Source of the DNA: a virus
Taxonomy: Duplodnaviria; Heunggongvirae; Uroviricota; Caudoviricetes
Length of the DNA: 34,679 bases
IMG/VR virus record: IMGVR_UViG_2695420676_000013
Coordinates: 1 to 34,679 of that record
Direction: 5' to 3' (one strand)
Positions 33,001 to 34,679 of this stretch are shown here, in pieces (within the stretch, counting starts at the first letter, position 1; each line of letters opens with the position of its first letter). Position numbers: made by a program.

Positions 33001-34679
33001 GACAATGATAACCACGCACAGAACACGGTTCATATCACCACCAACGGATTGCCCAGACCAGAACAGCAATGGCCACAATACGAATGGCAAAAGCTGCCGC
33101 TCTTGTTAAATCCAGACTGGCTGGCGTCTCCACTTCAATGCCTTTCATAATGGACAACCTCAGAAAGAATCTTTTATACTTCCTCACAGGGAAAGTACCT
33201 CCCTACCCATAATTTCTCCCTTGCCTTACTCAAGGTCAGAAAACACAAAACCCCGCTTGCTGCCAACAAACGGGGTTTTTACTTTTATTCACTTAGGTTT
33301 TACCAGTTTTCAGGATTTCGTGTTATCCACCCGCGTTGGCCAACGTCATTTTTCAGGAAAATATTCTGCTATCTGTCGATGTCCCAGCACGCCAGCGCGC
33401 TCTCCTGGTCACGCCGTGAGACCTGACCGTAGCAATTATTTGAACGGATACGGCAGTCTCTGCCACCGTCCTTAATCCACCAGCGAATCGCCTCACAGGC
33501 ACCTTTTCGATCGCCTGCATTAATTCGTTTATAAAACGTCGACGGGAAGCACTTACCGGGGCCAATGTTGTACGGACAGAATGACGCGATCCCCGCTTTC
33601 TGGGGTTCGGTCAGCGGCACCCGGATGTTTTTCTCCACCCATGCCAGCGCCTTGTCACGTTCGATGGCATTAACCCGGTCGCATTTTTCCTTTGACAGCT
33701 TCATGCCAGGAATAACAGGCTTACCATCCACCAGAATGGCACCACGGCAGATGGTCCAGATCCCCGCACCATCACGGTATGCCGTGGTGTGGTTACCTTC
33801 CTTTTCATCCAGAAACTGGTCGAGGATTTCAGGCGCAGAAGCACCTGCACCAATCAGCGCCAGAACGGCAGCCGACAGGCCGTATTTTATTTTTTCGTTC
33901 ATGGGGATTTATCGATTTCTAATCCCTTGATATGTTAGGTATATAATCCAACACTCATGGTCGCTCTCATAAACATATCCCTTGAGACGCAGCAGATTAC
34001 AACAAATGAAGCCATATAAATGAACAGTAAAGAAAGTTTGCGCAGAAGATTTTTACAACTAATGACAGAAAACGTTAAATCAGAGTTACTTCTTCTGATG
34101 GCAGATAATAACGAAGCAACAAGCAGCATTCTTGCAGACCCTTACGGTAAGATCTCACATAAAACGCTGGATATTATTACCACAACATTAACACCGCTGA
34201 TGCTTCAACGGCTGAAACATAATATCAACGCATGGGTTAATGAAGAATTAAGTCCTCCCTGCTTATGGGATTCTCGTTACGCATGTCAGCAAAAAATGCG
34301 AATTTTCAACTTACTATCACCAAAGCTCAGGTAGCCATAAAATCCTGCCCTTCATGGCATACAGGATTTCAATGGAATCACAATGACCAACTCTTGCACA
34401 GCTGTATCCCTGACTCCCCGACAACTCAGATTTTCAGTATCTGCTGCTATCTAAAGAGAAAGCGCACAAATGCAAGGGTCTTTCATCACGTCCTGTTATT
34501 GATTGCCTGTGACCTTTTCTTACCTCATGGAACGTTTTTTCAGTTAGAAATATTCATTTTACAACCAGTTCGTATTGTTTATTCATCGACTACTCTCCCC
34601 GCGCCACCTTACGCTTATCTTCTTTAATCTTGAAATAAAGGTTAGTCAGATACGTCAGCAGGCCAAACAGCAGACTCCC

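Follow-up and report, generated by a model that had tools for sequence, protein, structure and literature searches.

The window analyzed here is the complete 34,679-nucleotide stretch of the IMG/VR virus record IMGVR_UViG_2695420676_000013 (Caudoviricetes), a prophage in which the holin gene S and the endolysin gene R, both on the minus strand, are separated by a spacer of 687 bp (33903–34589). Our analysis makes it likely that this spacer is an S–R accessory slot of P21-type lysis cassettes that has partly decayed, that a single live accessory gene (moron) persists in it antisense to the late operon, and that lysis is not uncoupled by its presence. A first-pass annotation of the same DNA had proposed either cargo or a regulatory insertion at this position; the proposal of cargo is supported by the conserved junctions of the gap, by the variable contents between them and by a real, selected gene on the opposite strand.

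The S–R gap of P21-type lysis cassettes is a variable accessory-gene slot

The distance of about 690 bp between holin stop and endolysin start that had been read from the window was confirmed at 687 bp upon rechecking the coordinates in the sequence, with the TAG stop codon of S at 34592–34590 and the ATG start codon of R at 33902 (both minus strand). S, of which the window holds the 3′ end, is a 207-nt class II holin gene by the annotation of an identical genome, and the window's R, Rz and Rz1 are all intact as judged from sequence and annotation. The N-terminus of R is hydrophobic and may form a signal-anchor-release domain of the kind known from phage 21 R. The spacer is AT-rich, as had also been noted, with a GC content of 0.39 (0.38 within its 104-codon open reading frame, ORF) compared to 0.54 for R and Rz and 0.51 for the entire window; since 8.6% of the window's 687-bp stretches are equally or more AT-rich, this composition is distinct, not unique. 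No direct or inverted repeats of the insertion type flank the spacer, where only two short chance direct repeats were found, and a transposon-like insertion was ruled out as its origin for want of such repeats.

The S and R sequences on either side of the spacer have matches in 389 phage records. The adjacency of S and R, which the first-pass annotation took to be the normal arrangement, holds for some relatives, such as the locus L011, in which S and R genes of the same families as the window's overlap by 17 nt, but not for the P21-type lineage to which the window belongs. There, H-19B has an unannotated gap of 399 nt, and a 345-nt YdfR-family (DUF1327) gene occupies the gap of YYZ-2008 and of many Stx1a/Stx2c phages. 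The gap measures ∼1 kb in PhiR5_1, encoding a 211-amino acid (aa) DUF1327 protein together with an 86-aa antisense gene, and ∼1.26 kb in Stx2 phage 86, encoding a 268-aa YdfR-family protein together with a 104-aa antisense gene, the latter being a 53%-identical homologue of the window ORF in the same orientation. Other loci carry a late-strand gene alone (296 aa or 185 aa, in L018 and L021) or three genes, one of them a 95-aa antisense gene (L024). Comparing the S–R junctions of relatives, a check that had been recommended, thus shows 0.4–1.3 kb of sequence or genes filling the gap elsewhere. Functional relatives with the same spacing and a known gene, named beforehand as the refuting observation, were for the most part found, save that the genes at this position, while annotated, are uncharacterised. 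As DNA, the window's insert was detected in no deposited phage genome, sensitive blastn included, and its homologues there appear at the protein level only.

Alignment of these slots (alignment A1) revealed two conserved junctions with variable contents between them. The first is formed by the end of S together with ∼30 nt from the start of a YdfR-type gene, and the second by ∼45 nt upstream of R that are kept across all slot variants. The S–R gap of P21-type lysis cassettes is a variable accessory-gene slot with conserved junctions; it should be annotated as a cargo slot and not as damage, and a long S–R gap alone is no evidence against the ability of a prophage to lyse. Within the window, the slot has four parts, namely a YdfR-type head, a probable remnant of a late-strand gene, an intact antisense gene and a 117-bp region beside R (Table 1).

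Three small-gene families share the R-proximal antisense position within the slot (L003, 2715–2975, plus strand, 86 aa; L024, 3402–3689, minus strand, 95 aa; and the 104-aa window ORF), which suggests a hotspot specifically for small antisense cargo. Common ancestry of the three genes was ruled out (hhalign probability <2%, no blastp match).

The antisense gene encodes a protein under purifying selection

The 104-aa opposite-strand ORF of the first-pass annotation is present at 34020–34334 and is the only intact cargo of the window's spacer, lying head-to-head with R and pointing towards S. A BLAST search with its product, as had been advised, retrieved protein homologues such as orf6 of Stx2 phage 86 (YP_794053.1), a member, like the window protein, of phrog_1853 (E=3.5e-47, 161 bits, residues 1–102 of the window protein). 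The phrog_1853 profile comprises 159 positions and the match begins at profile position 57. As the homologues retrieved are 104–107 aa long with the same N-terminus, and somewhat longer if the call is extended by an ATG further upstream or by a shifted C-terminus, the surplus positions probably stem from over-extended gene calls. Several alleles (IMG/VR loci L084, L085 and L086, and P0018) share an apparent C-terminal frameshift just past the conserved CLQKK motif, which may reflect a slippery A-run or a sequencing error and yields products of 115–128 aa.

The family is tiny, with 16 clusters in a set of 5.8 billion proteins and 20 representatives in one of 1.84 billion, and is named 'hypothetical' in every source. 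No specific relative by family or fold was found in Pfam, NCBIfam, PADLOC, a PDB profile search or a fold search, and a literature search for ECs1097, for WP_000138558 or for holin and endolysin together with YdfR returned nothing. DUF1327 is touched on in passing by one paper, and PMC12315714 does not deal with the PhiR phages.

In RefSeq, the window protein is represented by a 90-aa 'hypothetical protein' (WP_000138558.1) whose start is called at 34062. The N-terminus MNSKE..FLQLMTE is kept in homologues of 64–79% identity, and the 14 residues upstream of the RefSeq start (MNSKESLRRRFLQL) are both conserved in homologues and part of helix 1 in the structure model. For these reasons the gene probably starts at 34020, the RefSeq/PGAP start being 14 codons too short.

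Homologues with as little as 21–34% identity are still 104–107 aa long. The ratio of non-synonymous to synonymous substitution rates (dN/dS), estimated by the Nei–Gojobori method on unsaturated pairs, amounts to 0.13–0.21. Within the clade that lacks a partner gene (see below), window and L074 differ in the ORF by 7 synonymous and 4 non-synonymous changes, and the ORF is 96.5% identical compared to 89–91% for the flanking non-coding DNA. The ORF is therewith 3–4 times less diverged than its flanks. The divergence of the flanks is close to the synonymous rate, which shows constraint on the ORF and none on the flanks. These results establish that the small gene encodes a real protein under purifying selection.

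The predicted protein is basic (isoelectric point 9.3). AlphaFold2, run on an alignment of nine sequences, models it as a five-helix bundle with a predicted local distance difference test score (pLDDT) of 86 and a predicted template modelling score of 0.75. Neither signal peptide nor lipobox is present, the N-terminus (MNSKESLRRRFLQLMTE) lacking a hydrophobic leader and a lipobox cysteine, and the model is an all-helical soluble bundle. No toxin, antitoxin or defence domain was found in PADLOC, Pfam or NCBIfam, and the PADLOC-DB v2 defence models gave no match at E≤1 for the three spacer ORFs tested.

A late-strand gene has probably decayed within the slot

Beginning 3 nt past the holin stop codon, the window carries a 10-codon relic (ATG AAT AAA CAA TAC GAA CTG GTT GTA AAA TGA) that runs into a stop codon. 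In alignment A1, its 30 nt correspond to the opening codons of YdfR-family genes in PhiR5_1, YYZ-2008 and Stx2 phage 86, and the similarity stops at this point. By tblastn the relic is 75–92% identical across 12 residues. A Pfam search of the spacer ORFs gave no match to the DUF1327 domain.

Further downstream on the late strand lies a second stretch, probably related to a gene found beside the small antisense gene in many other loci and hereafter called the partner (phrog_1085). At most loci of other lineages the partner encodes 184–268 aa and is modular, joining a variable N-terminus (DUF1327 or coiled coil) to a conserved C-terminal domain with the motif HxH..GRCMG.LQVAAEIE..PPFK..GW..PG..YLKGRI. 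In a tblastn search with the partner of Stx2_12E129 (E=0.003), 'VMKDPCICALSL*IAADTENL..RDTAVQELV' aligned against 'LMKRIGRCMGYLQVTAEIEAL..RDTAVREVL'. When the six-frame translation of the whole window was searched with a hidden Markov model of the partner family, the same stretch (34513–34335, minus strand) was the top match, with E about 0.006–0.011. It is syntenic with the intact partner of L012, with 54% nucleotide identity, and carries in-frame stops and a deletion of ∼41 nt compared to it. An intact frame for the C-terminal domain (HxH, GRCMG.LQ.AAEIE, PPFK..W..PG..LK.RI) is not found in the spacer, which holds a degenerate stretch only. As far as the sequence tells, a late-strand cargo gene for a modular YdfR/phrog_1085 protein has probably decayed, leaving a head of 10 codons and a degenerate remnant of the C-terminus.

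Three other ORFs of the spacer (64 aa, minus strand, 33935–34129; 120 aa, plus strand, 34265–34627; 35 aa, minus strand) were rejected as chance, because they lack a family match and overlap the selected ORF or the remnant.

The small gene is widespread, frequently paired and retained upon loss of its partner

A 611-bp core of the spacer is present in 628 of the 5,426 complete Escherichia coli genomes, at ≥99% identity in 622, and its carriers include most of the O157:H7 genomes sampled. In prophage Sp4 of O157:H7 Sakai, the gene is annotated as ECs_1097 between endolysin (ECs_1096) and holin (ECs_1100). The same spacer is found beside R alleles of only 83–86% nucleotide identity, which indicates recombinational movement of the cassette. 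Carried by about one in nine complete E. coli genomes, the small gene is a reasonable, not an urgent, candidate for a lysogen phenotype screen (phage exclusion, lysis timing, stress).

To describe its arrangements, 79 IMG/VR loci were surveyed, 72 of which hold the small ORF at full length. The window allele, without a detectable partner domain, accounts for 47 loci, and 27 loci pair the small gene with an intact partner C-terminal domain. A different allele beside a different partner remnant occurs once (L076), three loci (L082, L083, L086) carry the small gene ∼100 nt from S without any partner, and one locus has no usable context. In the other lineages, small gene and partner converge at most loci and are a few nucleotides apart or overlap; both genes are found between S and R in L004, L005, L012 and L013, and immediately upstream of S in L011, L008 and L009. 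L016 is a further orphan, in which the small gene adjoins a lysozyme pseudogene and the last 28–58 codons of the partner. Counting the window type, L076, L082/L083/L086 and L016, at least four arrangements thus have the small gene but no intact partner. Conversely, P0147 (296 aa) and P0113 (185 aa), two partners with the same C-terminal domain, are common directly between S and R, and neither an antisense gene nor a hidden homologue of the small gene was found beside them. Pairing of small gene and partner is frequent and is not obligate either way.

These arrangements bear on the alternative in which the small gene is the orphan half of a two-gene module, that is, a cognate binder (immunity protein, antidote or regulator) of the partner C-terminal domain, of which the window would keep the protective half. 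The recurrent convergent pairing, seen in most other lineages both between S and R and upstream of S, favours such a module, and so does the survival of the small gene, intact and selected, beyond the decay of its partner in several independent arrangements and lineages, a behaviour shared with orphan immunity and antitoxin genes. However, the non-obligate pairing weakens any toxin–immunity or antidote interpretation: P0147 and P0113 stand without the antisense gene, and L082, L083 and L086 show no trace of the partner. Moreover, unlike in such systems, the partner has no known toxin domain, its structure model is poor (pLDDT 47) with nothing that hints at a toxic activity, no match to defence (PADLOC) or toxin families was found, and the two genes are convergent and not co-transcribed, a layout atypical for toxin–antitoxin or immunity pairs. 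We therefore regard this alternative as unlikely. Still more speculative, and rather improbable in our view, is its extension in which phrog_1853 proteins are a new class of protective factors, made in the lysogen from the strand antisense to the lysis cassette, that neutralise the phrog_1085 C-terminal domain of superinfecting or co-resident phages, or another lysis-linked target, the window copy being an orphan immunity gene. Repeated convergent pairing, repeated partner loss with a selected small gene and the lack of a known fold are all compatible with it, and it is again weakened because the pairing is non-obligate.

The accessory gene has also been retained in prophages with damaged lysis modules. 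In O157:H7 PV15-279, the small gene is intact and the adjacent lysozyme gene is cut next to an IS3 element; in L016, it is intact and the lysozyme gene carries stops; and in Sakai Sp4 it is intact within a lysis module inverted away from Q, beside IS629. Inspection of the Sakai region (NC_002695.2, 1,182,000–1,187,000; L027/L028) shows the block pchA-Rz-R-ECs_1097-S inverted relative to Q and to the SASA esterase gene, near an IS629 copy, an inversion that severs the lysis cassette from its late promoter. The intact state of the small gene in these three defective prophages points to a role that is independent of lysis.

Candidate expression signals and a proposed role for the antisense moron

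R and the small gene start head-to-head, 117 bp apart, and a TATAAT hexamer within this interval (33942–33947, plus strand) may be the −10 element of the small gene. A TATAAT or TACAAT is likewise placed in the window, L016 and L012, and the window's hexamer is unchanged in L071, L072 and L074.

Past the stop codon of the small gene, and within the partner remnant, the hairpin that had been described as imperfect near 34330–34365 is indeed present (34340–34369), with perfect 8-bp arms at 34340–34347 and 34362–34369. The 46-nt stretch around it, which was picked post hoc out of 687 bp, folds with −12.6 kcal/mol on the plus strand and −16.1 kcal/mol on the minus strand (z scores of −2.5 and −3.0 compared to shuffled sequences), and on the minus, or late, strand the hairpin is followed by UUUUAU. 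The hairpin could serve as a weak terminator on either strand. It is missing in L012, the closest paired relative, and L071, L072 and L074 have an uncompensated substitution at position 34368. Folding of the entire 281-nt region is not unusual (z scores of −0.04 and −1.7 compared to shuffles). The covariance models of Rfam 15 matched nothing in the spacer, with two sub-threshold matches outside it (33189–33289), and a small RNA or riboswitch in the spacer was ruled out, there being no Rfam match and no overall fold better than that of shuffled sequences.

A different, GC-rich hairpin (CAGCCCGCCAGYGG..CACTGGCG) is conserved 50–60 nt upstream of the small gene in L004 (∼3900–3935), L005, L011 (∼3920–3955) and L008/L009. 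It is followed by a short T-rich stretch in most loci, occurs both at loci with R and at loci with S as the next late gene, and is absent from the window clade.

Based on these observations, we propose that the small gene is an autonomous moron with its own promoter in the 117-bp region that it shares with R, and that it is probably expressed in the lysogen, similar to lambda bor. Its product would be a small, basic, cytoplasmic helical-bundle protein, most likely binding another macromolecule, and would serve the lysogen or the prophage and not lysis. During lytic growth, Q-antiterminated late transcription would cross the whole spacer, such that S, R and Rz are co-expressed.

Several observations weigh against this proposal. 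A scan with the sigma-70 consensus called no promoter and no −35 element qualified, in the window clade the small gene has a weak Shine–Dalgarno sequence (those of divergent homologues are good), and, as the hairpin has no U-tract on the plus strand, no canonical terminator is found 3′ of the gene. Almost all window-allele copies are nearly identical, so that selection within the clade is estimated from ∼11 substitutions. Finally, the homology of the partner remnant is marginal (E about 0.003–0.01) and leans on synteny.

Some of these points would suit the view that the whole spacer, including the 104-aa ORF, is decaying and functionless debris, common only via a common prophage backbone. The adjacent late-strand gene appears dead, almost all copies are at least 99% identical as expected of a recent spread, translation signals are weak with no promoter called, and the small gene has no known function in the databases or literature searched. 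This view is nevertheless quite unlikely in light of a dN/dS of 0.13–0.21 across and within clades, of an ORF several-fold less diverged than its flanks, of its full length at nearly all surveyed loci while its neighbours decay, and of a confident predicted fold.

Even less probable, to the point of being very doubtful, is a regulatory insertion whose hairpin or antisense transcription attenuates read-through from S to R and thereby uncouples or delays the endolysin: the stable late-strand hairpin with its UUUUAU, and a small-gene transcript that would by its geometry be antisense to the late mRNA and aimed at S, are what it can draw on, but the hairpin lacks conservation, the consensus scan called no promoter for R, terminator-like sites in the region are at chance level (one found, within the small ORF on the minus strand, compared to 1.1 expected), no Rfam family matches, deposited phage genomes, among them the classical inducible phage H-19B and phages recorded with an E. 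coli C or K-12 host, carry 0.4–1.3 kb at this position, and purifying selection at the protein level shows that the product matters and not the act of transcription alone. In lambdoid phages, moreover, the late operon is Q-antiterminated and Q-modified RNA polymerase reads through intrinsic terminators. Given Q-antiterminated late transcription and the longer gaps in related phages, we see no basis for an uncoupling of S and R, and this part of the earlier annotation is left without support.

Comparison with known accessory genes

Lambda bor is an accessory gene antisense to the late operon, located near the lysis genes and expressed in the lysogen; its product is an outer-membrane lipoprotein with a serum-resistance phenotype. 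Similar to bor and other lambdoid morons, the spacer is an extra block of the size of a transcription unit between late genes that are adjacent in some relatives, is AT-rich compared to its neighbours, and bears in the lysis region a gene opposite to the late operon that is kept in defective prophages. Unlike Bor, the small protein has no signal peptide, lipobox, or sequence or fold relative, and the gene's own promoter and terminator and its expression in the lysogen are putative.

The YdfR/DUF1327 (PF07041) genes of the Qin prophage (essQ-ydfR-rrrQ) and of Stx phages occupy the same S–R slot. Where many relatives have such a gene intact, its ten initial codons are left in the window, directly behind the holin stop; in contrast to these relatives, the window has no DUF1327 domain, and its surviving gene is unrelated and on the other strand. 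In the literature searched, functional data close to the slot exist solely for K-12 YdfR, for which binding to the catalytic half of RNase E, and possibly to RNA, has been reported (PMC13232886). Only ten codons of a YdfR-type gene remain in the window, and this result is not transferable to the small ORF.

Table 1. Coordinates, strand and assignment of the features of the S–R region and of further cargo in the window
Feature	Position	Strand	Evidence or remark
P21-type (class II) holin gene S, 3′ end	34590–34679	−	Pfam PF04971, E=9e-11; truncated by window end
Relic of a YdfR/DUF1327-type late gene, 10 codons from its 5′ end (MNKQYELVVK*)	34554–34586	−	Alignment A1, tblastn
Partner-gene C-terminal remnant (phrog_1085/phrog_26186 type), probable pseudogene	34335–34513	−	tblastn, hidden Markov model, synteny
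Hairpin	34340–34369		Arms AAATCCTG/CAGGATTT, 8 bp perfect, 14-nt loop; 5 nt past small-gene stop
Small gene, 104 aa, intact, antisense to late operon	34020–34334	+	phrog_1853; ECs_1097 in O157:H7 Sakai
Region between head-to-head starts of R and small gene, 117 bp	33903–34019		R-upstream junction conserved
Endolysin gene R, intact, 177 aa	33369–33902	−	Pfam PF00959, E=7.6e-24; annotated lysozyme rrrQ
NleG-family genes (two) and Cu/Zn superoxide dismutase gene	6448–7098, 8365–8844, 14391–15425	+, −, +	PF06416 (NleG), PF00080 (superoxide dismutase)

Other features of the prophage

Between R and Rz, a 335-bp spacer (33034–33368) holds an annotated 37-aa ORF (33035–33148, WP_000675931.1). In Stx phages the R–Rz position is taken by the anti-repressor gene ant, and the spacer looks like another cargo slot. 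Another AT-rich island, with a GC content as low as 0.29, separates the small terminase gene from Rz (31100–32500) and comprises a PerC-family regulator gene (31787–32101; PF06069, E=3.8e-44; of the Pch type in enterohaemorrhagic E. coli) and a YlcI/YnfO-family gene. Two genes for NleG-family type III effectors are located beside the tail-fibre genes, and a Cu/Zn superoxide dismutase gene beside gene J. Such effector-bearing lambdoid prophages are typical of attaching-and-effacing E. coli. At its tail-fibre end, a phage-type integrase gene (1668–2765, plus strand) adjoins a dihydrouridine synthase gene (542–1579, minus strand), and the pair is followed by a methyltransferase gene (3517–4185).

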